Part shown: in pieces, positions 3,101 through 64,000 of the stretch | How the letters are laid out: every line of letters begins with the position of its first letter | Position numbering within the stretch: the stretch's first letter is position 1 | Source of the DNA: Ascidiella aspersa | Taxonomy: Eukaryota | Length of the DNA stretch: 64,000 nucleotides | NCBI GenBank assembly: GCA_963924565.1 | Contig: OZ004615.1 | Location: 17,298,001-17,362,000 of the forward strand | Reading direction: 5' to 3' | Program-made: the position numbers and the translations under genes | The notes under the pieces: model-generated | What the model was told of the DNA's origin: nothing | What the model saw: the letters and a program-made list of their open reading frames with translations, nothing else | Database searches by the model: none

Positions 3101-6100
3101 GGCATTAAATTGCACAGTGTCGAAATTTCGAAAAATCAAAAAAAAACGAAAATCTTTAATTGATGCGACAGTGTATGCAAAACCGAGTTCTTTTTGTGTG
3201 TGCTGGTAGGTATATCACTCCACAAAAATTTTGTTTGCTTGTCACTTGTTTACACTGAGAGCAAACTTACCAAAAACGTTTTGTAATCGTAATTCAACAT
3301 ATAGTGGTGAGTGGTGAGCAGTAAAATAAAAAAATGAGTTTCAGTGTTTTGGAAACTGCTGGGTAGAAAGGAAGTTTTAAGCGCGATTTATTGCGATTGG
3401 GGTGTGCGCAAAACCGCAATTTCGCCACTGCTACGGACGAATATACGTTTTGGTGCCGTTCAACTTATCCGCAAACACATTAACGACTTCCGTACAACCT
3501 GAATAGTAAGACATCTGGAAGGCGTTACTAGTGTGACGTTAGCTGTTTAATCACATGGAGACGGGTTGGCAAATAAATAAAATGATGCGAGGAAAAGCGT
3601 GGGTTAGGGCTTATTTGATTCCGACGCAAACTTACAATAAGCTCCAAACTATGGTGACTATAATATAAAAAAACATAAGATCCTTTGAAAAGGGGAGTTT
3701 ACAATAGAAGCTCACCTTAATGAGGGAAAGACTGTCCCGTGACCCCACTGCAACGACTTAAGTGCGTTTCCGCTAAGGTCAAGTGTCTCCAGCAGCACTA
3801 CGTCACTAAACGCCTCCGGCGAAACGTAATTAATGACGTTATCGGACAGGTCTAGTGACGTCAGCATTTTCAAGTTCGCGAATAAACCTTCGCTAATCGT
3901 TGTCAGCCGATTGTGCCTTAGAGACAGCATCTGTAGTTCCAATGTTCCTTAAAAGCAAAACCAAGTCCGTTAATTACCAACCTTTAGAAGTGGAATAAAA
4001 GTTTTATAAAATGCAATTTTTAATAGTGCATTATCACTTAACCCAGGCAGGCAAAGATAACCTGGTTTTGTTTACAAAAAGCAGCATCAGAAACAATTGC
4101 TTGTTTTTATTTAGAAACTTGCAAAATGTACGCAGCTTACTTTGAAACGTTTTAGATGAAATGTTGGCAATCTTGTTGTTGGACAAAATCAATCGTTGAA
4201 CTTTCTTACAATACTTAAACGAATCAAAATCTATTGATTTCAACCTGTTTCCATTCAAATTTATCACTTCGAGCCGTGGGTAGGGTTCGAAGTCACCTGA
4301 AGGAAAATTTACTTTATTAATTGTCTATTAATAAAAGTTTTAACCGCAGACATGGAAGTGTAAATGCAGGTATTTTTTAAAAAGTTGCGAAAATTATTCA
4401 ATTTTTAACCATTTATGTTTATTTCTTAAAGCATAACTTGTTTAACGCTCTCCCGAGCCTACAGGCCCAACGTGAATTACGTTTTCTGACACAAATAGGG
4501 GTGAAAGAGAATTAAAAGTTTGGTGACCCAACAAACTCTCGCCAAGCCCTTCTTGCAAGCGACACATGCAAACAGAGTTTGCCGAAATAAAATGAAACTG
4601 TTTGATAGCGTGATACCTTCCATTTGCCGTTAACGCGTGTTGGCGTGGTGGCGCAAGGCCAACGGTTAATATTTAACCGTGTATAACCAGCCTGACTTGT
4701 GTGCCGTGTGGGCGGGTCCCACGCAAATCATGCAAAAGTCCGTTTTTTTGCGACCTCATTGCGCGACCGAAGTAAAATTCCCCTAGTTGCTCATCTAGCT
4801 GACCATGCGGCATTTTAGTAACTAGGTCAAGCTTACATAACGGTTTCCTTTGAATAGCCCAGACCATAGTCGAAACTGTTTCCAGTTGGCGATCATGTAC
4901 TTAACACTTGGGGGCCGGGCGTTTCTGACCTGTAGAAGTTCCTATTAGGTGACCACGTACGGGCTTCAAAAAGCTTTTTACGTGACAAAAAATGTACACT
5001 TTGACATAGCGGCAATACCCATAATCGTGCAATGACTACGTCCTAACTTTTTCCGGGCAAGTATTTTAGCGACGACGCATTGTTGAAGTTTTGATCTGGA
5101 ATGAATATTGTCTAACCGCGTACCCCTAATTTATTTTTGTGCTGCGCGCGGACCATGATAGACGAGAAATTTCAGAGATGACGTCAAAATACAAATAAAC
5201 TATAGAAATCTGCTAAATTCGTACATTCAGTTATAAAAAGTTTTATTTCTAATTAAATTTTTTTGAAAAACTGATTACTTCTTAAATGAACATTAACATT
5301 TCAATTAGGACTTCATGAACCCCCTAAAACTAGTTCACAGACCCTAAAGGGGTCTATGGACCTCAGTTCAAGAAACCCTGGTTTAAAGCATAAAGGGCAC
5401 TCTGGGATTAAATGGCAAACCTAATAATACAGCGAAAATGTGATGTGTTATGTTATAGCCAATTTTTATCTTGTTCCATTTACCATACTTGTATCGCAAA
5501 TACGCCATCACAAATTTGACCGTTTTTGTGCTGTAGAAAGATGGGTAGAAAACACCCTCGGCATAAATTTCCAGGTAACTTTGCGAGAATTATTCTTAAA
5601 TCGGATTTTTTGGCGTTTCGTTCTCGGCGGGAAATAGGTCAAAAGTAAACAGTGTACCTTTGCGAAAGCCCCCACGTAAGTTAAGGCCGCGAGCTAAAGT
5701 TAAGAGAAGTGGAAATCCCGGCGGTCACCACCTTTCCCCCAGACGCCCGTCGGCGGATTACACGGCGCAACCAGAATAGATGCGGAAACCCGATCGTCGA
5801 ACGCGTTCACCAGCAGACGCCATCATTACCAATTATACGCAGCTGTAGCCTATGCAACTGGCCACTGCCTGCGAACCAGTGGCGGCTTTGTTTGCCGAAA
5901 GTGACAAAATAGTTCATTAGGACACCAAATTTATATGTTTTCGTTATTCTTTACTCTCAAGGCTTATTTCCACCCTTTTTATTCGTGATTTCGTATTTTT
6001 TCATGCAAAAACGCCGTTCATAATTGACATTGGCAATGATGATCCTTAATAACAAGAATCGCACCGCAATATTGGTTGTCCCACCACCCCTAAGGTTCCT

Positions 6101-38001: not shown

Positions 38002-40161
38002 TTATATCAACTTGAGCTGCAGAAGTCTCTTCTTTGTGGCCGCCTCCAGCGCGACCTCGGCTTGCTGTCGCTCCTTTGGCGGAAGATTGGCGATCTCATC
38101 GTCGCCCATGGGACGCTTAAAAACGTCTACGTTCGCCTGCTCGAATGCGGCTCGGATTCGCTTCATGTCAGCCGAGGTCTGGTCATTGATGGCGAGCAAA
38201 TCTTCGTCGCTCCCATGCGCGATCGCGTTAGCAGCTTTCATGATCCTAGCAACCACGTCACGGACGACATCCAACGCTTCGCGCTCTTCCTGTTTGCCGG
38301 GTTCCTCTTGCGGAGTTTCATTTCGCTCAGCTGGAACACCGTCCACCTGGACCTCCGAGCCTCCGTCGGACTTCGGAGTTTCTACCTTGAGGGGTGGTGT
38401 CTTGACGGTGACGGGACTAGGTGGTTTAGAAGGACTTGTGACGCTATTCGTCTCGCTTTCCGAGTATTCGGGTTCAGTTAAGTAGAGCTCGGCTGCTTTG
38501 AACGGAGCTGGAAGTTTCTCGGGTTCCAACCTCCGCCGTAACCGTTCGATCTGTTCGTCAGCAGCATCTTGTAGTTCCGATTTAGCGAGTCTTTCCTCAG
38601 TTAGCAACTTGCGAGTCTTGATTAATTCATCGCGCATCAGTTGAAGCTCGTCCACCAACTGGTCGCGCTCGCTCTTCAGCTCCTCCACGTTGTCGAGAAG
38701 AGGAGTCGAGCCTCCGCTGCCTCCACCGCCTTCCTCCAAAAGCGGGGAGCGCGTCTTCGATTTTTGCTGCTGCATCTGCTCGGATTTTAGAAACTTTTGT
38801 AGTTTGACGCTGAACCAATCGCGCCACGGGGGAAGAGACGGTGTCATTTCAGCGATAGGAAATTGCCGTCGATTTTCTCGCTCGCTTTTCAATATGTTTA
38901 CCAGCTTATGGTTAAGTTTGTGTTCGATCATGGCGCCCCGTATTTTCTCGGCAGTTAACACTCGCATGCTTCCCTTGACAGCCGCGTCCAGCTGCTTCCA
39001 AGTACCGCAATCCATGATCTTTTCCCTCGCAATAAGTAGGAAGCTGGCGCAGAAACTTGCCACCGGGTCGTACCGTTCAACGTCGAAACCTAGAATTACG
39101 TGGTCCCAGACGTACATTAGCGCTTCAAGCGGTAAATATCCAACCAGCAGTGACCTTAGACAAGGTCGAAACAAAACGCCAATGCAGTTGCCGGACGACT
39201 TGTTCGCGTGCCTTGTAAACAAAGTTTCCAATTGATTAAGAAGCCTGGGCTCATTGTTGGTTATAATACGCTTCGCTTCAGCGCAAAAGTTCACAAAACT
39301 GCGCACGTTATCCTGTGACGTCATATAGTCTGGTCGTCGTTTCAAGAACACCTCGTGTTGTGACGTCATAACTGCTAAAGACTCAGTGGTGAGAACTTGT
39401 TTGGGTGACGTCGTAGAGTCAATTTTGTCTAAATGTGAGCCTAAGGTACAATAAACGAACGGAACTGCCAAAAGATAGTCTGTGTCTGTGAGCCCAACGG
39501 TGGACTTTGACCTCAAGTGATGGTAAGACAGCAAATGTCGCAAAACCGAGGTCGCTTCTTTAAAGTTCAGCAGCGGCGCTAAAGTATGGTCGGATTTAAG
39601 AAGCGCCTGACTTTTTTGCGAAATTTCAAAGTCTAAAGGCGAAACCAGACGTTGCTTCAAACCAGAACCGACGGCTTGTTTATATTCGTCTTTGGCTTTG
39701 TTGTGCTGTAGCTGATTTTTCCACAAGACGTATCGCATTTTCCGAGAAATTTGAACACCGTGACACTGTTGCATGTGAGTCTTCATCTCTGGCCATTTGT
39801 CAAGCAATATTTCCACAGCATTATCACATTCTCTGGCAATATAATCCAGTCTTGTTAATTCCTGTGCTTTGCTGGCCTTGTAGTTATCTGCTTGGTTACC
39901 AAGTTCTTTATCCAAATTACTACTGACAACTTTCAGCAAGTCTGTATATTGAGGGTCTGATTTAAGTAATTCCACAGCGTCTAGTATTAAAATGTTTTGT
40001 TCTTCGGCAGATAAAGAGCTAAAAGTTCTTACGCCATTATCTCGCAAATGCTTAGAAACTTCATCAAACAAAACCTTGGAAAAGGCGAGCCACTCGTCAG
40101 AACGTAAAACCTTTTGTTTCGACACTTGAACCCAAGTTGGTATTCCACTTAAATTCGCCAT
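38002..40161 (-). CDS. Intronless 719-aa protein with a degenerate Rab-GAP/TBC-like domain and coiled coil
   Basis: Uninterrupted ORF. TBC-like segments RYVLWK, LRHLLSY, LLAVPF and LRSLLVGYLPLEALMYVWDHVIL; heptad region LKSERDQLVDELQLMRDEL...IERLRRRL; splice acceptor in the 5' UTR near 40199. The ORF is secure; the family assignment is tentative. Confidence 0.8.
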   Translation of the reverse strand: MANLSGIPTWVQVSKQKVLRSDEWLAFSKVLFDEVSKHLRDNGVRTFSSLSAEEQNILILDAVELLKSDPQYTDLLKVVSSNLDKELGNQADNYKASKAQELTRLDYIARECDNAVEILLDKWPEMKTHMQQCHGVQISRKMRYVLWKNQLQHNKAKDEYKQAVGSGLKQRLVSPLDFEISQKSQALLKSDHTLAPLLNFKEATSVLRHLLSYHHLRSKSTVGLTDTDYLLAVPFVYCTLGSHLDKIDSTTSPKQVLTTESLAVMTSQHEVFLKRRPDYMTSQDNVRSFVNFCAEAKRIITNNEPRLLNQLETLFTRHANKSSGNCIGVLFRPCLRSLLVGYLPLEALMYVWDHVILGFDVERYDPVASFCASFLLIAREKIMDCGTWKQLDAAVKGSMRVLTAEKIRGAMIEHKLNHKLVNILKSERENRRQFPIAEMTPSLPPWRDWFSVKLQKFLKSEQMQQQKSKTRSPLLEEGGGGSGGSTPLLDNVEELKSERDQLVDELQLMRDELIKTRKLLTEERLAKSELQDAADEQIERLRRRLEPEKLPAPFKAAELYLTEPEYSESETNSVTSPSKPPSPVTVKTPPLKVETPKSDGGSEVQVDGVPAERNETPQEEPGKQEEREALDVVRDVVARIMKAANAIAHGSDEDLLAINDQTSADMKRIRAAFEQANVDVFKRPMGDDEIANLPPKERQQAEVALEAATKKRLLQLKLI

Positions 40162-41960
40162 GATATATCATTAAAGTTCTAAATGCGAAAAGCTAAACCT
40201 GTAGCACAAATTTGCTTTCTGAAGACTGTATTTCAACCGCCAGCCAACCACACAATAAAAGAGTGAGCCCCGTATCCCATTACATCACAAAACAAGGTTT
40301 GTTTAAAAGCGCAGGGCTAAAAATGACCATTGTTGCCTAGCAGTCCCCAGCCAAGGGCCTGTAGCATCATCAACAAAGGTCGGTATAATGAAACTTTGCG
40401 AGAGTCTGTTGTTTCTTCGGTCAGCTGTGGACTAAAAATATGAAAATATGTTTGCGGTAAATACTGTCACTTCACGTTTTTCGTATGCCTATACAGTCAC
40501 TGCAGTACACTTGTGTTGCTGACACGTCCACTACATAACCAGCATTACACCAATATTCCAAATAATAACACAAATGATCACATATTTCACCTTACGCTAA
40601 CTGATTGAACAGTGTTACCACTAGCTTGCTTCGTCAACATGCGTACACTACAGAAACTTTGATACAGTCATCACCAAAGCTGTATAATTGTCTGTGTATC
40701 GCACTAGACTTTAACCTTTGTATTTTACTGCTCAGTTCGGCTGTACATCTCCACTGAGGTTATTCATGTAATCTGTCAAAATTTGGTAAACTTTAGCACG
40801 TAAAGTGTACTTTGGAACAGCACAACAAAAAGAGACTTTTATTTGAAAGGCGCGGCGTGCCATTCAATTTATTGACTCGGTTTAAAAGTTTAAACATGGA
40901 CCTTGACAACCACTGAAAGTCACACATAGCGCCTGATATATATATAGGCTAACTATAGCTTTTCGAAGGTACACTTGCAGCCTTAAATTGAGTACACCAT
41001 CAGCTACTTCCCCATTAGTTATCACGCCTCGCCTTCATACAGCAAACCCAGTTACCCTTAACGGCGTCACTTATCTTGCTTGATTAAACACGGCGATAAA
41101 TTAAATAACCAACGGATTGCGTCATGGCTGGTAAAACATTAACCTGACTTGCCAATAATTCGCCATTATCCAGAAGAAAGAGCTGATTTTACAGTTTTTA
41201 AGCTTCATTATATTCGCCCTTTCTTTGAACGACTGAACGCTAAATTAAATTGTTGTGATTATACGATTAATTACCATACTTCCTTAGATACCAACCTACG
41301 CAGAATCTCGCTCACCGCCGACAAGGATAACATTAAACTTTAGAACACTTAATTTTACTCGAAATATTGTATTTAATAATATGTATAAGGCCTACAAACT
41401 GAATTAAATCTATTTTTTAACATAAGCGAGCATTCCACTTACTTTAATAAACCGACGAAGAAAAGCTTATAATGCGTTAACCAACACAATTCTAATTTGT
41501 ACGTAATCAACTTGATTTGAACTCACAGCACAAATAAATCTGGCATATGTCGTCCACATAAAATTGACCACATGGCATAGTTTTCCACTGGTTTGATGTA
41601 ATGTGTCGTACTTCGAACCCTTCGATCGGACGGCCAACCCGCCTGCGTGACCCAAAGTTACCTCGCTGTTCACAGCATCATTCGAGCGTCTTGCCGGCCT
41701 TGACGGCGAGGCTGCAGTTTGTGATGACGACACAAACACTCGTTTATTATAATAAAATAGAGCATCGTTGGTATTTTAACGTGTATACATCCAAATTTAC
41801 AAGATTGGTTGAGTGATGTTAACGTTCTCTGTTTAAAAAAATAAATAAACACAACAGGATTCTAAGCATAAAACAAGTATTGTTTTTTTGTTTTTCTAGA
41901 TTTTTTAAACTCCTGTTTACAAATTTTGTTGTTTTTTGTGCAATCTAGAAAGGTACACAG

Positions 41961-47132: not shown

Positions 47133-50100
47133 TTACGTTGGACGATTGGGAATAGACGGTCTTCCGGTCGGGGCTGGGCGCCTGAGTTAAAAACACACTT
47201 TCGTTGGTCATAAAAAAACATAAATTAAAAGTACATTTTGCTACTTATTAAGAATTGTGGATCCCTAAACCTAATGGATAGCGGCTAATAAGTAGTATCA
47301 GTTCGTGCCCGATACTAGGATGATGTCGGTGCCGACCAAATGTTAGATTTACTTGGGGGTGATACGAACTATAGTTTGCAACGTAACGTAATATTTTCTG
47401 CTTTAAAAGGTAAATATTTCAGAATAACAGCCAAGGTAAATAAATGTAGAGCAAATTTTGGCCTAATAATGTGGACAACGTTGCACTTGCATGTTAAAAT
47501 CATATCAATTTTTTGGCAATATTAGGAATGGCACTTAGTGTCGAATCAAAAGGCTATAGTCGGCCGAAAATATCTTGTATCGGCCATAAATAATATAATT
47601 ATTGTCATGTCTTTGCGTCGGCCTGCGTATCGGGCTGGTATCACCAATATAATAAACAAAGGAGCAAAAATTTAACCGAAAGAACATAACCAAGACTGAG
47701 TCAACTTCATTCTATTTCCTGCAAACGAAGATACAACCTACCTTGGAATAGAGGGGGGCGCCCGGGTGGAACCGGGGCGGTTGGGAATCGGCGGTGCCGC
47801 CGCGGTGGGCATCATCGGAGGGGGCATCGAGGGCGCCTGGGAGGGCAGACCGGGGGGCATTCGGCCACCGGAAGGACGCGCAGGCGGGGCTCGCCGGCCA
47901 GGACTGCTGCTCCGTACGCTGGGTTAAACAAGGTGATATAAAACACTATTGGTAAAAGAGTATGAAAAGGCGTATCTTTATGGAATCCCAACCATTGGCA
48001 GCAGGTTTTTGCTTGTCGATCACGGTGACGATGCCAGTAATAGGCAAAATATATATTCTTTTATAAAGTGTCTGATCCTGGTTTTACTCAGGTTCTTAAA
48101 CTTTGAGTTTTATTTGTTTGTTTATTGTTAAAAGGGGTTATTTGGTTATTTTTACGTCTGCTTTTCTCCGTCTTTTGCACTACACAAAACCTGTTTGGTT
48201 TGTAGGCACTTTTGGGACCGGTGCGTGACCCAATAAAAATGGAGCGTTTTTAGCGGCTTTATATCATGCTCACGACGCTTTGTCATATTCATAAGTTAAA
48301 CCGTATAACTAAAAAGTTTTCAAATCGTTGCAGGCAGCAGCTGCGCCTGTGGGGTAAACAAGACCTAACGCAGTGACCAAGTTCAAAGTAAAAGTCATCA
48401 TTGAAAAAGAGTGCAATAGTATTAAACTGGGAATTTTGAAAAGTTCGGCGAAACCTAACGTTTGAAACGATGAGGGTGCTTATTGGTGCGAAATTGGGAT
48501 ATAAGCACTTTAAAACAAATAAAATTCGTTCATTATAAAAGCTTATTGTAACACTTGCCATTAAGGATACAAAATTACAAATATTAAACACAATAAGAAT
48601 ATTAAACTGTTAGTTTAACAAGGCATGACTGTTAGTTTGATCAAGACAAAAGACCTAAAATGATTGGATTACTTTACATAGGTTCACTAGGGTTGTTTAC
48701 TTTGTAGATTTCTGCAAGTTAAGCCCTTGATACTTTGCCAAAGTATTTGGAATTCTGTGTGTGCAAAATAACTTAATAGAAAATAATCAGTCGTGTATTC
48801 GTACCCGGATTACAGTTTAAAATTCAACTACACTGTCTTTAAATTGTGCCGCGTTTTTTTAAAATATATCACAGCCTAACACGAGATAATAAGAATAAAA
48901 AAACAATCATAAAACGAAAAAAAAAAATAATAATTGCCAGTATGGCAGAAATCGGCGCCTCGCTATATTAAATTATAAACTGGCTTTTTAAATCTTCCGT
49001 GAATATACTTCTAAATCCAACGGTATGTTTATCACAACGCACAATGGAGCTTTATATATATATCTGCGTATTTCACACAGGAGTTGTAATTAGTGCATCA
49101 TAGGTTGTCCAACACCGGATAGCATTCGACATGCTCGAGTCGCGTGATTCAGCATTTCACATTTATTTGGGTTTGGAAAACGCTCGCCAGCCAGGCCGCT
49201 GCTTACACAGTAGACGCGGTTAGTCACAATCAAACAAGGGTTAATGTGCATTAGTCAACAGCCGGTAGCTGTACTACTAGCTAGGACAAGTAATCTCATA
49301 AGCTGAAGCAAATTTTCTCAGCTAGCGCTTTGAAGAACAACAGAATCTTTTTTCCAACAAAGTTTTTTCGAAACCACTTTTTAAAGGGCCAGATTAATGA
49401 CAAAATTTGGCCTTTTTATCGAAACCGTTAAAGCGATGCTTAACATGACATCACGTTAGGAGCTTGGGGTCTGGTTACAGGCGCTGACAAACAAGTTAGG
49501 TTCATGCACGTTCCCTATTACAGTAGTTCTTTTTTTGTTAAACTAGGGCGGCGGTGCAGTTCAGCGACCTCGTCTTGACACTGCTCCAGCGTTTCAGCGG
49601 CGCCTGTTGCCCGTGGACCTTTTGGGGCAGGAGGGCGCCCCCGTCGAGAATGTTTTCCGCGCTGGACGACCGCACCATTGCGGATCCGGGAAGAGGGGGC
49701 CTGCTTTTTGTTACGTTTAGTTACTGCTGGAAGTTGGCCAAAACCGTTGGTTTTCGACAGCTTTTAAGGTTGAACGATTGACTGTTTATTCAGGCGGTTT
49801 ACCGAGAGTTTACCCTCTTTGTAAATGTCGTTAACTGCAATTCTCTTTAAAGTGGGCGTTGCGTTAATCAGTGGACGACAACCAAATATATTTAAATCAA
49901 TGAGCGAATTTGACGTGCTTTTCAAACACTAAAAAAACAAATATCCCAACGATATTGAAATCCAAACAACATTGTGATTTACCCGTTTTCATTGTAAATA
50001 AGAAAACACGTTATATGCGGCTAAGGTTAGATTAATTGTTGGCAAGTATAGTTATTTTGATGTTTGACTGTGTTTTAACTGCTTACCTTTGTCTCATGGT

Positions 50101-53100
50101 GTTCACAGGTGCCGACCCGCCGCCTCCGACTCCGTTGTAAGAGGTGTGAGTTGGCGACTCTTCCTGGATCCAGGAGTTGTCCACCGGAGGCGGGAGATTG
50201 GTCTGTGCGGTCTGCAACAATGGGATGTGTTCTTACTTCTTAACACGAGATATAACGAGCGATTTGCTGTACGACGATGTTGCACGATGTAGGAAAACAA
50301 TGGAATAATAAAATATGCTACTTAAAACATACCTAGTTAAGGTTTTAACCAAGTGTAAGGAACATGAAGAGCTCGTGTTATTTCAAATAGTGTTGAATCA
50401 TAAATTAAGAACGTGATTGTAATGCCCATTTGATTTTATGTTACAAATATTTTATAGGTGCTTTTGTTCCTGTATATACTAGGAACTACAAGCCGTGGGA
50501 TAAGCTTTGGTGAATTGTAGGAAATGTTGTGATCCAATTTATTTAGGAATTAGCGACTAAAAAGCAAACGGGTAACTGTAATTAGTATTGGTTTAATGAG
50601 AATGGTGATTTGAATCCTCGATATCCTAATAGTTTCAAGTAAAGTTCCCTATGCATGCTACCAAGCAAAACCGTATCATTCTGTACCACCTTCATGTTGA
50701 TGTCTCCCATGCACTTGAGAGCCTCCTTTAGGCTCTGGTACATCTTCACCATCGTGTCCCTCCTTTCTGCTTCCTCTGCCGACTCCTCCATCAGATTGTT
50801 CTGTCGTCAACAAAATTACTTTTAAAATATATATAAAGCATTAGAAAAAATCACAGTGACGGCGATAGGTTTTAAACCATTACCAACGCCGCTCTTCCAA
50901 AAAATACAAATACTTTAATAGAGTTATAAAAGATATCGCGCACTTTAAACCAGGGGTGCTGAGTTGGATAAGAACTTTAAAGCAACCAGAGTTTAACTAT
51001 GCCTGAAAAATAAAGTCGAATCCTAGTCCGTAGAGTCCAGAGTCCGGCTCTGGAGACCAACACTACTGCGCATTTTTAACGCTTCTGCAAAGTTGGCAGG
51101 ATGGCAGCTCGTGCCGCCGATAAGACACACATATAACCTCGCTATCGGTTTGCGCCCGTTTAATGAGACCACTGATATGCTGTCTGCTGGTGAAGCTTAC
51201 CGCATTCCCTGTGGAGTAGAGGTGAGCGAGAACTTCCGTGCTGATAAATTCCTTTGTCTGTTTGAAATATAACACAACACATGTGACAACAAACAACAAA
51301 AGTGTATCAGTGTATGGCAGGTATACTGTATTAAACAATATTAACGCGAGAACAAAAATTTGAATAATTTGATTGAAGTTTGATTTACTTCTGAATGGCT
51401 TGTTAGGTGTGTTCTTCGTGTAACAAATAAGCAGTCATAACTAACAATAATGAATCAAATGCCGAATTTGAAAAGAATCAAATAATAGATTTTTGTGCCA
51501 ATCGTCAAATCATATTGGTTTTAAATATCAACTACCAGCATCTCAACTACACAAGTTTTGTTAAAATAATTCGCTTTAAATACCCAAAACGGCCAATGAA
51601 ACGCAAAACTTACCGACCTAGTTCAAGTCACTATCGACTGCTAAAAAACACCAAGCATTCACTCGCCTGGTTGATCATGATGTTCATAACGATCTTTGGC
51701 ACCAGATCGCGGATTGTTTTGTTGACGATGGCGATGTAGCTGTCCACCAGGTTCCTGATCGTCTCTACTTGCCTCTCGAGCTGAGGGTCCAGACTGGAGG
51801 ATGCCGATGCTGCGTCGGAAGAGGAAGAATGGCTGGAAGAGGTCTACGGTTCGAAAGGAACAATGCGAGTTAAAAGGAAGTTTTTTTAACGTAGTTTTTG
51901 ACAGTTTACCGGTAATGGAAATGGACTTACTTCTATTTAACAGAATTTTGAAAGACTTGTTGAAAATGAATGTTTAAACGTTTGAAAATATATACCATTC
52001 ACCAAACACCATTTAAGTGAAAGAGCACTATTGGTGGAAAATATGTTTTACTTGAACGTTCTTGAAGGTTTACTTAAAAAGTGGCAATAAATATCTTTGC
52101 TATAAAACCTATTTCCAGTTAGTAGGCTTGTTGTGCGGTGAAGTGCGCGGAAAACACATAAAAATATATGTTTTTTTTTGCACTTCCAGGCACAGGTTTT
52201 GGTAAGTGTTCTTTAGGAACAGGTCGAATCGTCTTTTTTGGCGTTTTTAAAGAATTTGTTACACATGTTGCGAAATGTTGGAAAACTTTATACGGATATT
52301 TATAGTTGTGAATATATCAGGATAACTTGTACAATGTAAATGGAATATTGGCAAAAAGTTGACAGAGCGGTTGCAATTTTTGGAAAGTAGCAAGTGGATT
52401 AAATACGTCTCAATTCGAATTTATTCGTGTTACAGAAAGGTCATGCTCTTTTGATACTTCAGGCGTTCCAAAAAAATTCCAAAAAGATCGATTTATACGA
52501 ATTTGCGTTTACTTTTCGAACGCAGCCTTCCTTATAAAAAGAAAGTTTGCTTTAAATCACCCTCACCTCAGTGGATCGTTCAGGGTAAACTCCAGCGCGA
52601 AGCAGCGAGGCTTTCCAGCTATCCACCACTTCTTGGGTCTCAGCGGATAACTCAAGTTGCCTGTAAAGCAATAAAGCACGGTCACAATTTAAAAACGACT
52701 CTAAGCGTAAGTGAAACTGATATGCATTTTAAGGAGAGTGAAAAAATATACAAATTAAGCAAATGACTTTATCACCTGTGTTATAAATCGCAAAGTTGAA
52801 ATGTGTTATACGATTAAATACGTTTTTAAGAAATTCTGATCCGCAAACATGTGCTTTCACTGTCGAAAAAATAACTGAAATAACTCATATTTAAACCGCA
52901 ATTTTTTTCTCATAAGAAAAAAATAAGATTTGGTAATAGTTAGGGACTTTTTTTCTGCGCTATATATATTATATACATTTGGTTTGGTTTAAGAGTGGAA
53001 ATTTGTCGTGTAAATCTTACCTATAATCTTTGTAGACGTTTCTCGATTCCGTGTTAAACAAAGCAAAGCCATATTTGCTCGACATGAATCCCTTTTCGAG

Positions 53101-56100
53101 ATCGCGCATACGAATGTTGTCCAGCGACAGGACAAACTTTTTGTCTTTTTCCTAGAAAGTTAAAGCAACATAAACATTTACAAACACTAAGCTAACAATT
53201 GCAACACTTTGGTTAATACATCCAACATCGCTTCGAAAAAAATGAATAAAGAAAATGTTTAGATTAGAGACTCAGTGGTCAACCTATTACGAGTGGTGGC
53301 CCATTTTATTGAACAAAACACTTTGTGGCCCCAGGGCTGCGGAGTCGGACTCGGGACTCGAGGAGTCAGTTTGTTTTACTGGAGTCGGACTCGGGACTCG
53401 AGGAGTCAGTTTGTTTTACTGGAGTCGGACTCGGGACTCGAGGAGTCAGTTTGTTTTACTGGAGTCGGACTCGGGACTCGAGTAAGATCACGTAAAACTA
53501 CCCGACTCCACGTTGTTTTATTTACGTTATAGGTGGAAATACAGGATGTAGAGTGTAGAGTCAGGGTAGGACTAGGGACTCGACAAAATCGCATATTAGA
53601 CCGGAGTCGGACTTGGGTTTTTTTTTAACCGACTCCACAGCCCTGGACTGGCCCCTTGCTCACGTTTTAGAATAATGCTTCATAAAACGTTACAAGAGAA
53701 GTCTTAAAGATGTAGTAAAAGCCACAAATCGAGTTTAACTGCCTACTAATCAAAAACATATATGTTTGTGAACCTCAGAAGGAGGCTTCACTCCTAGATG
53801 GTCCGCGATTGAGAAACGATGGTTTAGGCTACAGGCCTTCTGGTGACGAGCATTTTGAGACCAAATTCTTTATTCTTTTTTGGCTTAGTCTCTAAAGTCA
53901 AATGCTGTGGTCGGCAACGAATGTATAAGCCTAGACAGAATGTTTTTTCCCTTTACTTCGGTTTTTCTGATTCTTCGGCCGACATAGTCGCCAAGTCGCC
54001 AAAATTCTGCCATACTGGCTACAGGGTTGAAACAAACGACCGCCAATGCAAAAATAGGTCTATTCGAAGGTCAATTAACATTCACAACGTAGCATACTAT
54101 TTTCGGACACAAATGTTTGAAAATGTTGAGCTATTTTAAAAACGATTAAAGCAATAAATAATTCTTCTGCTTATACACTGTACCACGGACGCACTGTCGT
54201 TCAAACAAAACTCCAAACTAATTTTTGTGCGATGGCAGGACAATAATCGAAACTCGTGATTTGTGCAACCTACCTCATCATCTTTGTACCACTGAAGGTT
54301 CTCCGCACTTAAAGTGAACCAGAATTCCTTGGAACCACCCCGGATAAAGCTTAAGTTGTGCATCGTTAGCCATCCTTTGCGGATAACCTGGTTAAAAAAG
54401 CAAAACAGGTTCAACTCGACAGGTTGTCGGGAAGGTTTCGTCTTTCGTCCGGTTATAGTTTGTCAAGAATGTGTGTCAGTTTAATTGTTCGGCCATATTT
54501 AGCTGGAATTTTTTTTAAACTGTAAATTTTAAAGATCCACCATTTTTATTGATGTGAGGAATCTTTATTTTTCCCCCCGAAGGCTTTAACTGGCAAACAA
54601 ACATGTAAAAAATCTACTAAAATTTACTTTTAAAGTTTCTAATTATGACAAAGTCCAGTGGTATATTTTAAAAGAGAAGTTTACAATCTAGCATCACAAA
54701 ATTTTATAATACAAATTTAATGAGCATGTTGTTTTACTTTGTACCTAAAGGGAATACCTGCCAAGCACCTTGTCAACAGATAACTTAAAAATGCAAAATT
54801 TTTGCACAGCACATATGCGCAGACACAGCAGTTTTACAAGTTTGCAGAACAATTAATAAGCAATTATTGGTGAAACGGTTAATATGCAATGTTAGTCATA
54901 ACATTGTGAAACATGCATAAAATAACTAAGCATTTTGCAATTAATAACAAAATACTGAGAACCTGTCGCATATAAAAAAGAATGGCAGCTAGAAATATAT
55001 GTCTTTTAGTGTGAATTTGTTGTGATGCGTATAAATGTGCATGCAATTGGGAAGATAGTGTCTTGCGTTGATTAATAACATTTAATGCAGTGGTTTAACA
55101 TAGGGGTTTAGGTCAAGTATGTACGGCCAATACACTGCAGACTTCAGCAACTAGATAATTCTAGGGTTCCAATTCAATGAATCAGAGCAAAATGCGGCCA
55201 ATTCTAATTTTAATCTAATTTAGGAATTGCTTGTGTCATCTAATTCTAGTTATAATCTAGTTCGGATTTTAACAAAAATTCTTCTTTGTCCAGTGGCATT
55301 TTTAGTCTTTTAGTCAAAACAAAGAATTTAAATTAAAACTCTTTGGATGGAACGACTTGTATGTAACTTTTTACAGTCTAAAAAGCATATGCAATGCTAA
55401 AATCCATAAAATTAACACACGCATATTTACCATTCATATTCTTAATTAGAATAATTCACGATTTAAATGAAATTAATTGTGAATAATCAAAGTAATTCTA
55501 GTTGAAACTTGCTTTGTTAAGAATGTGGTAATTCTAATTCCAAATAAATCTAGTTGTCCCAAGTCTAACACAGCGTTACGTGCATTGCCGTGTTACATTA
55601 GTATAAACAGTAGCCATATGTTTGTGTTATCCTAAGTATGATTTCACTGTTTAATGTATGGCAGCACTTGGTTAGTGTGTGAAAGTTGTGTTTATGTGAA
55701 CTAAAACTAGCAGTGCTGTGCAGGCATTTGTGGCAGTTAATGGTCAAACCTTCACCAGGACTCAAAGCAAACCCACCATATCCTATAAATAACAATCAAG
55801 CAGTGGTTATTAGTGGCTCATTAGATCACAAAAATGTGAAATCAGCATATAGGGTGATGTGAATGGTGTTACGTACTGGATGCAACATTGTTATTTCCTT
55901 GTTGCATTTAAAGTTGCAGCAAATGAACACACTGTGATTGTTTCACTAGATGGCCACACAAAGATCTATATATTTTCTTTTTATAGAATTTTTTATTTGG
56001 AGTTAAACATTAATTTTCGTTAAGTGGTATGCATATTTGCAGTCATGCCAAATCTTAGTTTATTTTTCTTAGTATTATATCCACCATACAACTACCAACT

Positions 56101-59100
56101 GTATAGATCAACAAAATGTGAATCAAGTGATATTTATCAGCATTACATACAGTATATGCTGAATCACGTAAGGTCTGTCTATTCTACATCAAACACAGTC
56201 TACATCTACAATTCTTGTAACAGCAAAACAACTGTGGTTACCTGATTGCCGACAACTTTTTTCTTTGTTCCCCGGTCAACTCCTTTTTGTGAAGCACTAT
56301 AAGAATTTTTTTTAAGTTTAATTGTAGGAAACTAGCTTAATTAATAAAATAAATATGAGTTACCTTGACAAATAAATATAATAACCTAAAGTAACTTTTC
56401 AAAAAGATGGCTACATCATGTTTCAATGATCACCAATCACCAAAAATTAATTCTTCTTTAAACATAATTAGTTATATATAAAAAAAAAAAAATTAATACT
56501 TGTACCAAATACAATATTATTCATGCAAATAGAAATTTGAACAATTAATATTTTTTGGTCGGAAACCATTAAAAAAATAGAACAAATATTAAAAAAGGTG
56601 TATCCAGTTTTGTATGGTGGTAATAAAAGTAATTGAGAAAGAAATACGTTAGTAGATCAAGAAAATCAAAAGCGCCCCTTTTTTGCATGTGTATTTCAAC
56701 ATTGTAATTTCACATTCGCGAGAGTTATTAAAATCAACGACCTAAACACTAATATTTCATATGTATAAATATATAAATATATACAAAGCCAAAGCAAACT
56801 ATTACACATTATAAATATACTGGATACACCACAAAAACGAAGTAAAAGTTTTAAATTTAACAGAATGACATGCCAATTAAAACATGCAAAATTGTGCAAT
56901 AAGGAATCGCAATTCAAAGTTTTTTACTTGGCAAAACCGATAAAATCTTCATGGTTTGTGTTTATGTAAGAGATCTCACAATCTAGCAAAAAGTCGACCT
57001 ACGCAAAACAAAATAAAGGAAGCTCATAAGTCTAGAGTTAAAATTAGAAGGTGCTTGAAAAAGGCAAGACAGAGAAAAATCAACTTCTTGACCGATTAAG
57101 TATTTGAAAATGTGCAAGTCATAGGCATATAAAAGATGTTTTAAATAACAAATCTAATCAATTGTTTTAGGTTACAGTCTCTAAACGCTGTCAAATTATT
57201 TTTAAACAAGCAAGTAGGTTTTCTACAAAAAAATAGGAAATTTTCTACAAAAATAAGCCTTGAATAAAAATCATTGAGATTAATTCTAAAATATAAGAAG
57301 TTGATTTTAGCCTGAAGAACTTTTTCAAAACATGGCCTTGAATAACTTTAGGTCAAGCATGATGTCAGGAATGAGTCATTCCAAGTGCAAAGGAAAATAT
57401 TTAGAGTGATCCCCCCTTCAAATTTTCGATAAAGACAACATATTGTAGTATGATTTTGCCCAAATTTTTTTCTCAATGTTTCAAAAAATACAAATATGAG
57501 ATTTAAAACCCCTCAGCTAAAATAAATCCCAAAGCAACTTTTTCCTATAGGATTTGTTGACCGCACATCCTGACAAGACATGCTCCTTCATCCACATACA
57601 CTTACGCTGCAAAGCCTATGAAGTCTTCGTGCATTTTATTTATGTAACAATATTCAAAATCAATCAACCTTAGAATCTAAGAATAAAAACACATGGTCAT
57701 ATTATGACTTATAAAACTATGCATCTTCTTAACTACAGTTACAGAAGAATTATTATTAAAACATAAAGTAAAAAAAAAAAACTTTGTCATCATTTGTCAT
57801 AAAACCTTTGTCATCATTTGTCAGCGTGTAACTTCTTTTTAAGTTAAAATCAAATTTAAATGAAAAAGACACAAAGTGCCTTAAACAGAAAAAATATTTT
57901 ATTTTATTTACAAGTTTCTAATAGGTAAAGTTTTAATTTAGCCCTCTGTGAATCAACATTTTTTCTTTTTTAATTTAACAACAGGTATAATTTTTTGGGG
58001 GGCATTTTTATCTAACTGTCAATATATATATTTAATGTGGCAGAAAAGCTGTTCAAATATTACAAATAAGTTTAATTGTGATTTATCATAATAAAAGTTA
58101 ACAAACTTCACTAGTTAATGCACAGTTATTGCATTATTTAAGATGCCATACAATACTGTGCACATTTTGAACTTGAAGGAGTAAACAAGCAAACTCAAAA
58201 AAGAGGACATCAACATATTTTTACTGTTTGTAATTTTGCTGCATGTGGTAAATTTAGAATCTTTTTTGTGAGGGAAATCCTAATTTGGTTATCCCAACAA
58301 TCCCAGACATACTTTGCAGTGAACATTAATCAAATGTTATACAGCGAGAAACTAAAACTATTGCTAATTAATCCTATCTGCATTGTGGACACACATCAGA
58401 TAATGTTAGACAGGTTGTAACTATTAAGTACGATATACGATTGAGTTACATAACTTTGGGTATCAACTGAGGGATTAACTTGGTCCGCAAAGGGTTAAAC
58501 ATATTTAACAGGCTAATCAAAATTATATGTTGGAAATTCACCAGTCTGTAAAAGGGTTTAGAAACGTTTAGCTCCAATAATTTAAACTAAATATTGCAAA
58601 CAGTGGTGAAAATACCTGTGCCTTAGTTTGACTCTCTTTTTGCCTAACATGTGTGCTCACAATTCTGTCTGTTTCCTCCCGTAGCATTGGGTATCGCGAC
58701 ATCTGCATGAAAATTTGACATAAATTTATTAGTTTTTTTTTTCGCATTGAACAAATAATATATTTGAGTACTACATCAAAGAGACATGAAAGTACTTAAC
58801 TGTTACAACTAAAAGTGCTACATGAAAGAGAAATAAAGGTACCTACTTTTTGGCTACATATCCGCAGTACATTCATCAATTCACTGCTCACCATGTCCAC
58901 ACATTTTACAGCAGGCTCCTGAAAAAGGTTAAACATTTATGTGCAATAAAGAGAACATTACGATTTGGGAAGCAACAAAAGGGTAAAACAGTAACTAAAA
59001 TAAATTTAATTCATGGGTATGTAGATTGACTATGTTGAAAAAGCAGCAGTTTCTTACAGAAACACTGCATTTATAAAACCTTGGTTATTTTAACAAATCA

Positions 59101-62100
59101 TAACAAAAAAGCAATAGAGACATTGACCAGAATTTAAGCACAAATATAACACTCAGGCTATGAAACCATCAGAACAATTATTTATTACAAATCATTTTAA
59201 GGAAAGGCAGATATTTTCTTTCTATTAATTTAAAGCATGAATATTGCATTATTTAGTTCAGTGAAACTGTTTGAAAATGTCTACAGTCCTATATGCTCCA
59301 CCTAGGGTCCAGGAATCATGGATAGCAAATATCTGAACAAGAAAACCAATTATAATTTTAGGTACCTTTAAACTTTTAATTTGGCTTTTTACAATTTCCT
59401 CGAAAGCTTGATCTGGTGTGAACAAGCCAGTCCTGATACCATGAATATTTTGGATCACAACTGAAATTTCTCTACGCAGAGTTTGTTCATCAAGATCCAT
59501 CTAAAAAGTTACAAATTATGACATAAAATCCAAACCTTGTAACTAACATGGCTATAGCTGGGGAAATGAAACCAAGCCTGTCAATAGAATTACTTAATGC
59601 ATTTGTGTTGTTACTTTTACTTGTCTCACTAAATGGAAACTTTCAGTTAGAATAAATTCAACAGTTGACAAGCATAGTTGTAGGTTACGGCAAACTACAT
59701 TAATAAAAAGTGTTTTTTACATTAATTAACAGTACTACACCTTGGAAATGAAGTTTATTTATGGGTTATTAAACTGTGTGTTGGTTGTAGCATTGCATGT
59801 TCAATAGTATAAATTCGACAGCTGACAAGCATACTTGTAAGTTACAGCTATCTCCATGAATAAAAAGTCTTGTCACTTTATTGAACAGTACTACAGCTTT
59901 TAAAGGAAGTTGATTCATGTGTTATTTAACTGTGTGTTCGTTGCAGCTTTGGTATGTTTGATAGTGGACAGTGGACGGATGCTGAATGCGCTTTTAATAG
60001 CAGCAAAATATGTAATCCTTGATTTTCCAGATTAAATTTATCCTGGTTTCCCCATAGGCTAGCTTTGACCATCTCAATAAAGAACAGCATTTAGGTATTC
60101 AGCCAAAATATAATCTGTTGGTTTATAATTTTTACCATTGAAGCACCCGACAAAGTCACCTTACAAAACATAAAACATTTACAAAAATTACTGTAATATT
60201 AATAGCTATACTGGGTATATTAAATATTCTATTACAGAGAAACACACTTACGAGACATCACTCAAACCAGAATTTTTTTAAACTAAAGTATATTTGATAG
60301 AAGTACCAGAATGTTCACCTAAAATTTACCTCTTTCTGCAATTCTTCTTTGTATTTTTTGCCACAGCTTGGATCCCATAATCTTGGAAAAGTCTACCATA
60401 CAACATTACATTTACCTGAATATACTGGTTTTCTAAACTTTTTTTCTAATATCTAAAATATTATACTAACGAACTCGCTGCAATTTGCATTTAACACTGT
60501 TTTCTCATCTACCACTCATCTGTCATTTTTGTTTAATTTAATATTGCAAATATGCACATCATAAGATGTTTCAAAAGGTTAACGACACTGACATGCTACA
60601 CAGGTTAGAAAAATATATTGCACATTGCTATCCCTGCAGCAAAATATGAACCTCATAAAACTGGCGCTTTTTTTAGAAGTAAAGAGAGTAGTTCTTTCCA
60701 AATCTATAATGATATTTGATTTTCTTTCCTAGACCTTGGCACAATTGGACAAGGATATGGTTCAAAGACTCAGCCTGCATAAAGCCTGCTATGCTAAAGA
60801 CTAGAAAATAACTGAGACTGAGACTAAGACAAAAAATGGCCACAGAGCGGGATGAATTTAATTGGGGTTCGTAATTAGCCTAATTAAAATTAGGCAAATC
60901 ATGGAAAAAAGTCAAACAGTTTTTATCTAGCTTTTACTGAAGTAAAATTTCACATAGCAATGCAGTTGGTTTACCTTGACAAGTTCGTAGGGAAACCGTT
61001 CATGGAATATTCTGTTAATTTTCGCTCCCCCAGAAAGTTCACTTGTGTCGATTGAGGCTCCAGTTCCCTCGATCAGTTGCTCAAACGATTGGTTAAAAGC
61101 CTGAATCATTCTGCATGGAGTGATAAAACATTATTGACTGTAACTTGCAATCGAACAGCCTTGAACTTCACAGAAAACATATTGCAGACTTTAACAGTGG
61201 ACAAAGCCATACTAGATGTATTTGAACTTTTAACATTTCAATAATGATTAAAGAAACTTTATCTCACTGGTTTGTATATCTTTTTAGAATCAATATAGAT
61301 TCTAAAATAGTTTTAAAGAGTTTTATAATCTATATTGTATCAAGGTTCTTGCTATCTTACTGCAGCATAGCCTTAGTCTTGCGAGCTGGATCATCAGGCT
61401 GATAATTCTTATACTCTTCCACTTCCTTCTCGATTTCCATCATTTGCTTTTGTAGTTTGGCTTGGAGTGCTGGCAGTGTGTCTTTGATGTGGTTTGTCAA
61501 TTGCTGGAAAAAAGTGGACAATAAAATATTGGTAAAAAAATTGTTTTATGGTTACAAACACAAACCAACAAGTAAAGGAAAAAAATATAATGAACATATA
61601 TATGCTTTAATTTACTGGATGTTCGGACCTGGTTAAGAACTTTCTGAAGATGCGGCGTTCCCAGACGATCAGCCATGTGACGATAAGAAGAATGGCTGAT
61701 GAAGAAGCGGCGTTCAGCAGCTAAGGCTGCCCTGATGTCTTTGTTTCCATCAATATCTTTCTGACTGCGGTTCACCACACCAATGTAACCTATAAGTTGT
61801 TTGATTGAGAGTTATAAATCATTTATAGCCACTGTTATAAATACAATGATCACGTATCCTTCAGTTACTATATATGGCCAAGAAGCAGAATATATTTTTA
61901 AGTGTTGCAGCTTGCACACAATTTATTTTTAGCCTGAGCAAGGGAGGTGTATTGGCTTTATGTTTATTTTCTAACTATAGTGATTTATAAAACAATTCAA
62001 ATTTACCTTGAAGGAGTACACTTTAGGAGAGATTTATGGGTTTACTTTTATTATAAATTTTATTATTTACTACTAAAATTAAAAAATATATATATTTAAA

Positions 62101-63993
62101 TGAAAAAAAAAAACAATAAAAAGTATGCACTATTGTTAAAACAATGATTTTGTGAACCAGCCTAAAGTACAATGGCTTAACACCATTTAAAAATATATAT
62201 TAAAATTAAATGATTTGTAAAAGTTTAATGATTTAAAGACAGGCAACATATGCAATAGGAAAATGAATCCCTTCTTAGAAATGAAGCATTAATGTATCAA
62301 ACCTCTTCTTAATGGTAGGAGTTTGTTTTCTAAAATAGCTTTTGCATCAGTTCCATCATCCATGAGATCAAGTTTGGTTATGACTCCGATAGTTCGCGAT
62401 CCTGCAAGTAAATACTTCCAATAACTATTTGGAATAAAATTTAGAGCTTCGACATTTTACCAAGAAAAATTTCACAGCATATTTAATAAGGAATTATCTC
62501 CGCTTGGGCGTTCTTAACTCAGTGGAACCTAAAAATATTCAAATGGTACACAAACATCTAGCATGTCGGTGTTATATTATACCAGCTTATATTACAATCC
62601 ATGTTTTTTTTCTATTTATAAAAACATAAATGTGCAGCTATAGCTTAAATATGATTTGTTTTTTATGACTTTTTTGGGCAAAACAATATCTTTTCGAACC
62701 AAGTTGATCGCAGTGACAGTAAAAAAGACAATAGATGGTGCACGACCACAATGGTTGACAACTACTGATTAAGGTAATCAGCAGACAACAAGAAAACAAT
62801 TGATAATGGTAACTAAGTATTTTTGTATCAAGTTACACTGTTTGTAGGAGAGTGAAAATTAATGGCAGAGTGTAATAAAAGATTTCCTTGAAAGGTAATT
62901 CTCTAAAGGCAAAGTACTTACATGGACACCAAGTTATATATAATGACAAATAGATTACTGAAAATATATAATGACAAATAGATTACTGAAATGCTGATAT
63001 TTGGTATTACCACAAAAGCACATTACACTTTTAATGGCAAAATATGGTAACACAAATCCTAAATACCAAACTATATCTAAAGTGTGCAACTATGCAGGCA
63101 TGTTATAACATGTAACAACAAAATATTGTCTTTAGCAACAATTTTGACCTGGAATTCTTAATTATGTTTATATTTTCCTAAGCAAGAAATTGCAGTTATG
63201 TAGTATTTTAGTTTTTTTATAAACTATGTGTATTAAGTGGTAAAAAAACAAAATAATACAGTAAAATCAGTATACTTTATAGACACTGCATATATTTTTA
63301 TTATAAATATTGCCAAATTAAACAAACCCTGGAATAAAAACAGGAACATTTTTAGGTTGTAAACTGGTCGATAACCATATACACAGTTTCACACCTTTTA
63401 ATATTCAAATGTTTACAACACACAGTAATAACACGACAGAAAAACCTTGCGGGTCGAATTCTTTTGCTACTTTCAGGGCATCAGAGTTGGCGAGATCAGC
63501 ATTAGCAGGAGACACAGCGAGGATGAGACAATTGTCTTTGGACACAAACTGAGCAATCATGTCTTTGATTTGGTTTTCTATGTCCGCCGGTTGGTCCCCT
63601 ACTGGGACCTTGGTGATTCCGGGCAAATCAACCAGGGTGAGGTTCAAAACTAACACAAAATAATAAAAACAATAAGACTGTGATGATATACACAGTATTT
63701 TTAACATACGCATCAAACACAGATTAAAATAGCAAAATTTTGTTTTTTTCTTGTAAAACAATTCACTTTGCTTTGTAAGGCACATACGCATATTTTCAAC
63801 AGATGTTTATTTTTATAATAACAAAATATCAACTCATCCCTACCATGTGGGGAATATACTCTAAGATTGATTGGGATTGCACTGATTCCTTTATTTGATC
63901 CAGTCATCCGATCTGTTTCTTCTTCAATCTCTTTTCTAATATCGTCAAAATTTGTAAACTTTTTCCCTTTGCAGTGTAGAAATTCACCCCATT
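47133..63993 (-). CDS. DNM: Classical dynamin (GTPase, middle/stalk, PH, GED, PRD), 5'-truncated by the window end
   Basis: Exons 63844-63993, 63446-63649 (LTLVDLPG), 62303-62401 (TKLD), 61629-61789, 61361-61503, 60975-61110, 59366-59500, 58847-58918, 58616-58702, [57606-57676 or 56928-56998], 56242-56296, 54274-54387 (VIRKGWL, PH), 53021-53151, 52567-52660, 51667-51843, 51201-51257, 50690-50800, 50087-50211, 47742-47918 (PRD) and 47133-47181 ([16 protein letters not shown]); all phase-consistent. Confidence 0.96.
49538..49700 (-). CDS. Putative alternative terminal exon of dynamin
   Basis: GC-rich island after a CAG acceptor; phase 2 matches the upstream donor; encodes [20 protein letters not shown]...[18 protein letters not shown]. 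Confidence 0.55.
53332..53645 (+). mobile_element. hAT-type MITE, family A, with an internal 40-bp tandem expansion
   Basis: CAGGGCTGCGGAGTCGG / CCGACTCCACAGCCCTG; the 40-bp unit is repeated 3.5 times at 53341-53481. Confidence 0.85.
55139..55566. mobile_element. Degenerate MITE with AATTCTA subterminal repeats
   Basis: Imperfect TIR AGACTTCAGCAACTAGA / TCTAGTTGTCCCAAGTCT; flanks TACACTGC / AACACAGC. Confidence 0.5.
56928..56998 (-). CDS. Dynamin mutually exclusive stalk exon B (canonical type)
   Basis: 71 nt, tag / gtaaaa; encodes [23 protein letters not shown](N). Confidence 0.9.
57606..57676 (-). CDS. Dynamin mutually exclusive stalk exon A (divergent type)
   Basis: 71 nt, ttcttag / gtaagt; encodes [23 protein letters not shown](A). 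Confidence 0.8.
59652..59965. repeat. Diverged tandem duplication (2 x ~157 bp) in a dynamin intron
   Basis: Units start ATAAATTCAACAGTTGACAAGC (59652) and ATAAATTCGACAGCTGACAAGC (59809) and align over their length. Confidence 0.8.
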
Positions 63994-64000
63994 CTGCAAA

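Follow-up and report, generated by a model that had tools for sequence, protein, structure and literature searches.

The window (the whole analysed stretch of Ascidiella aspersa DNA, 64,000 nt) contains a classical dynamin gene, whose relevant exons and associated elements are listed in Table 1. All regions of the Phallusia dynamin map in order on this gene by tblastn, which identifies it as a classical dynamin with all five domains in one gene. The Pfam set of its relatives agrees with this assignment, the best PDB matches are dynamin-1 and dynamin-3, and the closest named proteins come from Phallusia, Clavelina and Ciona (93-82% over a 45-residue exon). Only one other Dynamin_M locus was found in the genome, a Drp1-like gene (DNM1L) at G000:C2:15844000-15854500 (L002-L003).

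Table 1. Features of the dynamin locus in the window, with the evidence for each
Feature	Positions	Strand	Basis and remarks
Classical dynamin gene (GTPase, stalk, PH, GED, proline-rich tail)	47136..64000	minus	Located by tblastn with the dynamins of Phallusia and Clavelina; exons 1-3 fall immediately beyond the window end
Upstream exon, 87 nt, human residues about 446-474	58616..58702	minus	Frame reconstruction; spliced joints
Exon A (71 nt); a diverged orthologue of the F481-type ascidian copy	57606..57676	minus	Comparison with relatives; zero spliced reads seen
Exon B (71 nt); orthologous to the C481-type ascidian copy, and the form seen spliced	56928..56998	minus	X4 reads, X3 contig joints
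Downstream exon, 55 nt	56242..56296	minus	Joined-exon reconstruction; spliced joints
Predicted long-range RNA duplex that would loop out A, 5' arm	58453..58476	minus	Folding; suggestive only
3' arm of the predicted duplex, 71-99 nt past the A donor	57507..57535	minus	Folding; suggestive only
9-mer GCATGTCTT, 23 nt past the A donor, contains the Rbfox-type GCAUG	57575..57583	minus	Also follows the orthologous exon of L005; shuffles p 0.10-0.14

The surroundings of the pair have features of their own. An exon of the proline-rich tail (49574-49714, minus strand), likely a cassette exon, occurs in longer Clavelina isoforms and is missing from the Phallusia protein. Downstream of dynamin lies a stop-free frame of about 720 codons (38005-40167, minus strand) with a proline-rich, coiled-coil-like end. 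The intron past the downstream exon harbours a very high-copy repeat (55100-55500), whose contig depths add up to more than 10,000 in runs X1 and X2 and on which some RNA reads fall, on both strands; a simple filter found no microexon in this intron (Ciona has KFGKE and Clavelina DM). In one X1 contig, 34 window bases (59309-59342) are missing, an intronic length polymorphism.

In the stalk region, exons A and B form a tandem-duplicated pair of homologous neighbours, as had been predicted from the DNA of the window. Both are preceded by AG and followed by GT, both run from phase 0 to phase 2, and they are identical at 43/71 nt; a pair with the same properties (homologous neighbours, equal length and phase, canonical splice sites) occurs in L005, a contig from a related ascidian. 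The either/or frame logic put forward in the original prediction holds throughout. Joining the upstream exon to A and B leads to an early TAG in B, and joining it to the downstream exon with neither copy leads to a TGA in the next exon, so that joint inclusion and joint skipping are both non-productive; inclusion of A or B singly leaves the frame open, with 790 stop-free codons over 21 joined exons. Joints of the two non-productive kinds are absent from the joints listed for the RNA data and from the 47 ascidian isoform records (three species) that contain the segment. When the window was scanned together with 9 kb upstream, only these two copies emerged, scoring 111 and 86; the next hit scored 37. 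Exon A and its flanks are single-copy in the genome, and an assembly error can be ruled out for A, since contigs from three runs (X1, X2 and X3) span it with no listed difference inside. Short repeats around the locus appear to be AT-rich chance matches.

Raw RNA reads come from one run, X4, of which 7,793,684 records were read (about 6 in 100). Six reads join the upstream exon to B and one joins B to the downstream exon, so that two of the anticipated joints (58616>56998 and 56928>56296) are seen, whereas the joints anticipated for A are missing from X4: depth is zero across A and none of the upstream-donor junctions leads into it (0/6), a shallow count that places the 95% upper bound on the share of A at about 39%. 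Both joints of B are also present in X3 contigs, with depths of 35.8 and 47.7; contig depth is a poor measure in this run, which is of unrecorded type but contains spliced joints. In X3, A lies within an unbroken intronic contig (depth 39.5) with no branch at its edges. The sum of the spliced-to-B (35.8) and unspliced (49.7) depths roughly equals the upstream junction depth of 80.8, which leaves little room for A, though contigs drop rare forms. An A-to-B junction is seen neither in X4 reads nor in X3 contigs. Altogether the RNA evidence comes from at most two samples; in it B is the form seen spliced, and inclusion of A in transcripts of this species is a candidate only. The introns around the pair (56297-58615) are covered at depths of 25-67 in X3 contigs, compared with 0-8 in neighbouring introns, and contain sense-strand intronic reads in X4, a possible sign that splicing here is slow or detained.

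Other ascidians possess both copies. The two versions of the segment differ at residue 481 (numbering of human dynamin-1) and are found in public isoform records of Ciona intestinalis (19 F and 7 C, n = 26; for one cluster, 15 of its 25 members are among those listed), Clavelina lepadiformis (3 F and 6 C, n = 9) and Styela clava (9 F and 3 C, in the 12 of 13 records that hold the segment), species that represent three ascidian orders. The single Phallusia record and the three records of C. savignyi contain F only. All these are counts of gene-model records and differ from expression levels. Among 80 metagenome loci kept from 281 relatives, three have two copies; the other 77, many of them short or intronless, carry little information on copy number. 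In L005 and L006, which belong to one organism and are identical in both exons, an F exon is followed 603 nt on by a C exon, with donors GTAAGT and GTAAAT. The counterpart in the window is A followed by B, 678 nt apart, with donors GTAAGT and GTAAAA. L005 is the nearest relative found, matching 130/143 residues in four constitutive exons (Phallusia 119/143), and its second exon is identical to B at 23/24 residues. From the shared order, donors and residue 481, A is taken as the F copy and B as the C copy. This orthology relies on order, donors and residue 481 because the exon tree, built on 23 columns, resolves little: no branch is starred, a branch at 70/79 sets the C group apart, and A forms a very long branch. 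Collectively, the pair is almost certainly an ancient either/or exon pair of ascidians. As far as the compared sequences go, the conserved difference between its copies is F versus C at residue 481, not the NKMH of exon A.

Literature searches on dynamin with ascidian, Ciona or tunicate, to which subscription journals were largely inaccessible, found no paper on the pair. Both versions of the segment are nonetheless already present in automatic gene models named 'dynamin-1(-like) isoform X..' of Ciona intestinalis, Clavelina lepadiformis and Styela clava. The pair is thus apparently undescribed in papers, yet its visibility in these models makes the surprise moderate.

Exon A of Ascidiella aspersa has departed from the ancestral F type. 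Against its L005 orthologue, only 14/24 residues of A match, compared with 23/24 for B; A differs at 10/24 residues, while four constitutive exons together differ at 13/143 (Fisher p 0.0002). When Phallusia is used as sister and Ciona as outgroup, changes private to the lineage affect 7/24 sites in A, compared with 7/154 elsewhere in the middle domain (p 0.0006). Against relatives, the changes in A are K477R, L483Y, S484C, T488K, N489M, D491E and N498A. F copies of other species match each other at 19-21/24 residues and, unlike A, keep YINTNH[DE]DFIGFAN. Among fetched proteins, T488 is kept in 37/37 other distinct peptides (a set in which H490, D492 and F493 are fixed by the search pattern) and in Drp1, and is lost in A; position 484 is S or A in all 37, and Y483, M489 and A498 occur in none. 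No relative with the residues of A was found among these 37 peptides or the 80 loci, in a search that could reach such a relative only via the flanks of A. Judged by this comparison, NKMH is private to exon A of this species. The original prediction had read the change from NTNH to NKMH as an evolved switch between the copies; this does not stand, since all other ascidian F-type copies examined keep NTNH and the conserved contrast is at residue 481.

The many synonymous differences between A and B had also been put forward as a sign that both copies are under selection. Synonymous sites are, however, saturated even between orthologous exons of the window and L005 (pS 0.75-1.0), and dN/dS was therefore rejected as a measure. 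The synonymous differences thus reflect the age of the duplication and not present selection, and present selection on both copies in this species is not supported: A has outpaced the remainder of the stalk in its drift by a wide margin and is not seen spliced. HEDFIGFA is still conserved in A; three of its codons each carry two or more changed positions with the frame kept, and at the donor the last two exon bases have changed from AA to GC. Inside A no SNPs were found, which is compatible with chance as about one would be expected at intron density. In neutral simulations run to 7 or 9 amino-acid changes, with 0.05-0.16 indels per substitution (the top rate being our estimate from polymorphisms at the locus), 4-27% of runs end with length, frame and AG/GT unbroken, and in 0.5-8% these come with 8/10 near-invariant residues kept. 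This favours some remaining constraint on A, with an ascertainment bias in that an intact exon is what gets flagged.

The duplicated exon corresponds to residues 475-498 of human dynamin-1. In the Phallusia AlphaFold model, which is poor overall (mean pLDDT 56), it covers the end of stalk helix 452-487 and a low-confidence loop after it, with pLDDT values of 87-93 up to residue 480, 66 for 481-490 and below 50 from 490. T488, F493 and F496 presumably belong to stalk interface 3. A literature search on T488 and F493 returned nothing relevant, and the three residues are not named in the available portions of PMC8437954, PMC12550548 and PMC5090216. The Drp1 equivalent of Y485 is Y493, a residue that both stalk interface 2 and assembly require according to PMC10864337. 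The Drp1 (DNM1L) gene of the same genome keeps the threonine lost by exon A.

Exon choice may be related to splice-site strength. In a small and rough matrix built from the gene's own 19 constitutive sites, the acceptor of A scores 2.7, below all 19, and its donor 2.9, below 18/19; B scores 8.4 and 5.9. The accessible part of PMC5740500 gives as grounds for exclusion a donor-to-branch distance below 50 nt or a U12 donor. Steric interference was rejected, since the intron between A and B measures 607 nt (532 in L005) and its candidate branch points lie 16-46 nt from B; U2/U12 incompatibility was likewise rejected as no U12 donor was found. Folding predicts a duplex between the two arms of Table 1, paired as 58476-58453 with 57535-57507, that encloses A at -30.0 kcal/mol, a value as low as which is reached in 0/97 shuffles (mean -22.4). 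The duplex forms in the fold of the whole 1641-nt stretch, with pair probabilities of 0.93-0.99 at 5/6 positions checked, and both arms are single-copy. It is one of six intron pairs tried and the strongest among 20 internal exons, but one constitutive exon reaches -28.3, equally far from its shuffles. Two segregating alleles weaken it to between -24 and -27, no comparable duplex was found in L005, and no competing partner for the 5' arm, as in a docker/selector model, was detected (next best -15). Looping out of A by this predicted duplex is therefore suggestive only. Between the window and L005, none of five intron pairs contains significantly conserved elements (p 0.17-1.0). GCATGTCTT occurs both after A and after the F exon of L005, which is not significant against shuffles; its GCAUG is the Rbfox motif. 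A downstream Rbfox site favours exon inclusion.

Taken together, these data suggest a scheme in which an ancestral ascidian duplication would have produced two stalk exons used one at a time. Exclusivity would be enforced by splice-site competition, and products with both copies or neither would be removed by nonsense-mediated decay. In Ascidiella aspersa, A is likely skipped by default, on account of its weak splice sites and of the predicted intron-intron duplex looping it out, and a tissue-restricted factor, perhaps Rbfox acting via the GCAUG after A, may switch it on. Since the exon encodes the last part of stalk helix 3 together with the loop leading to the PH domain, exchange of A and B is predicted to tune how stalks pack and assemble. 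With moderate confidence, B can be seen as the default and A as a minor exon, rarely included and under relaxed constraint; the loss of T488 is hard to square with A as a normal working isoform.

The main rival to this minor-exon reading is full decay, a possibility with a smaller but real share of the probability, in which the ancestral F isoform was lost, through weak sites or the duplex, and A is a dead remnant drifting neutrally that has acquired no indel or stop yet. The original prediction had linked a dead duplicate to missing reads into A and to absence or decay of A in related species; no reads into A are seen in X4, A has diverged in this species, and relatives retain the F copy. The RNA data fit such a remnant, with 0/6 junction reads and zero X4 depth on A, and with the X3 intronic contig and depths accounted for by B plus unspliced RNA, as do the seven lineage-specific changes including T488K, the weakest splice scores in the gene and the altered exon bases at the donor. 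These RNA data are shallow, however, given the upper bound of about 39%, a maximum of two samples and the loss of rare forms from contigs, and neutral drift reproduces an intact exon with most invariant residues in only 0.5-8% of simulations.

Two further explanations give A a function of its own. The acceleration of A might mark a positively selected new isoform, whose changes at 483-489 and 498 alter assembly and yield, for instance, a subunit that polymerises poorly and has a dampening effect in one cell type. The changes do cluster beside Y485, whose Drp1 counterpart is needed for assembly (PMC10864337, in its accessible text), and the three codons that differ at two or more positions have kept the frame; but relaxation explains the acceleration equally well, saturation prevents an estimate of dN/dS, no expression of A is seen in the RNA data, and no second species with its residues was met among the 37 distinct peptides or 80 loci. 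The idea is improbable. More doubtful still is a poison or decoy exon that, when included with B or by stalling splicing, sends transcripts to decay and so sets the dynamin level, its splice sites and frame-shifting length being kept and its protein not. The early TAG of A plus B, the relaxed protein sequence next to retained splice sites, and the coverage of the flanking introns (25-67 against 0-8 in X3), which suggests slow or detained splicing, would suit this role; no A-to-B junction is seen, however, HEDFIGFA is still conserved in A, and the X3 coverage comes from a library of unrecorded type in which contig depth is a poor measure.

Ascidians are the closest invertebrate relatives of vertebrates. 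They have one classical dynamin, in which a separate stalk pair evolved at an exon other than the vertebrate one and has been retained in three orders, and Ciona offers a simple, transgenic-friendly animal in which to ask what stalk isoforms do. Exon A of Ascidiella aspersa provides a natural example in which one copy of an old pair is apparently losing constraint, of use for studying how exon pairs are lost or repurposed.

The best-known dynamin pair is that of exons 10a and 10b. In the available text of PMC2916854, these exons of vertebrate DNM1 and DNM2 are mutually exclusive, invertebrates are said to have one isoform, and the pair is linked to complex neurons, for which it is read as a vertebrate specialisation. 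The DNM1/DNM2 pair is also given as vertebrate in a list (PMC4494069, in part), supplement rows of PMC5740500 describe the human pair as a 139-nt exon, an excerpt of PMC3923563 cites competing RNA structures for human dynamin-1, and exon 10a has clinical weight (bioRxiv 2022.06.02.492389, in part). The accessible portions of PMC3228551 and PMC8373072 contain nothing on the ascidian 71-nt exon. Like 10a/10b, the ascidian pair is a tandem duplicated middle-domain exon of a length not divisible by three, with one copy used at a time. It differs in measuring 71 nt and encoding residues 475-498, whereas the vertebrate exon measures 139 nt and encodes residues 399-444. The exon-10 region of the window is single-copy, cut into exons of 135 and 72 nt, and it shows no variation among the Ciona (26/26) or the Clavelina (9/9) records. 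Conversely, in a fish DNM2 cluster (15 of 43 members) the 475-498 segment has one version and exon 10 has two. Homology of the ascidian pair with 10a/10b is thus rejected: since a different exon is duplicated and the exon-10 region here is single and cut differently, the two pairs are independent, which bears out the separate origin first proposed from the position of the exon and adds conservation across ascidians.

A metagenome locus, L072, that ends 530 nt after the second copy carries two tandem 158-nt dynamin exons (4319-4476 and 4917-5074), each corresponding to the 87- and 71-nt exons fused and each flanked by AG and GT. The copies are alike at 105/158 nt and 40/52 residues and are preceded by a single set of upstream exons. 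L072, which we take to be arthropod-like, comes from a non-ascidian animal in which this part of the stalk was likely duplicated independently as an either/or pair. It is tempting to view the stalk as a recurrent target of convergent exon duplication (vertebrate exon 10, ascidians, the L072 lineage) and A as an expressed, duplex-gated isoform that alters assembly by breaking T488; this combination is unlikely.

Among human mutually exclusive clusters, 60% have lengths not divisible by three (PMC5740500 and PMC8373072, in the parts accessible). The ascidian pair resembles tandem-duplicated mutually exclusive exons in general in its homologous neighbours, equal length and phase, and frame shift on joint inclusion, and differs from them in that one member is apparently losing constraint in one lineage.
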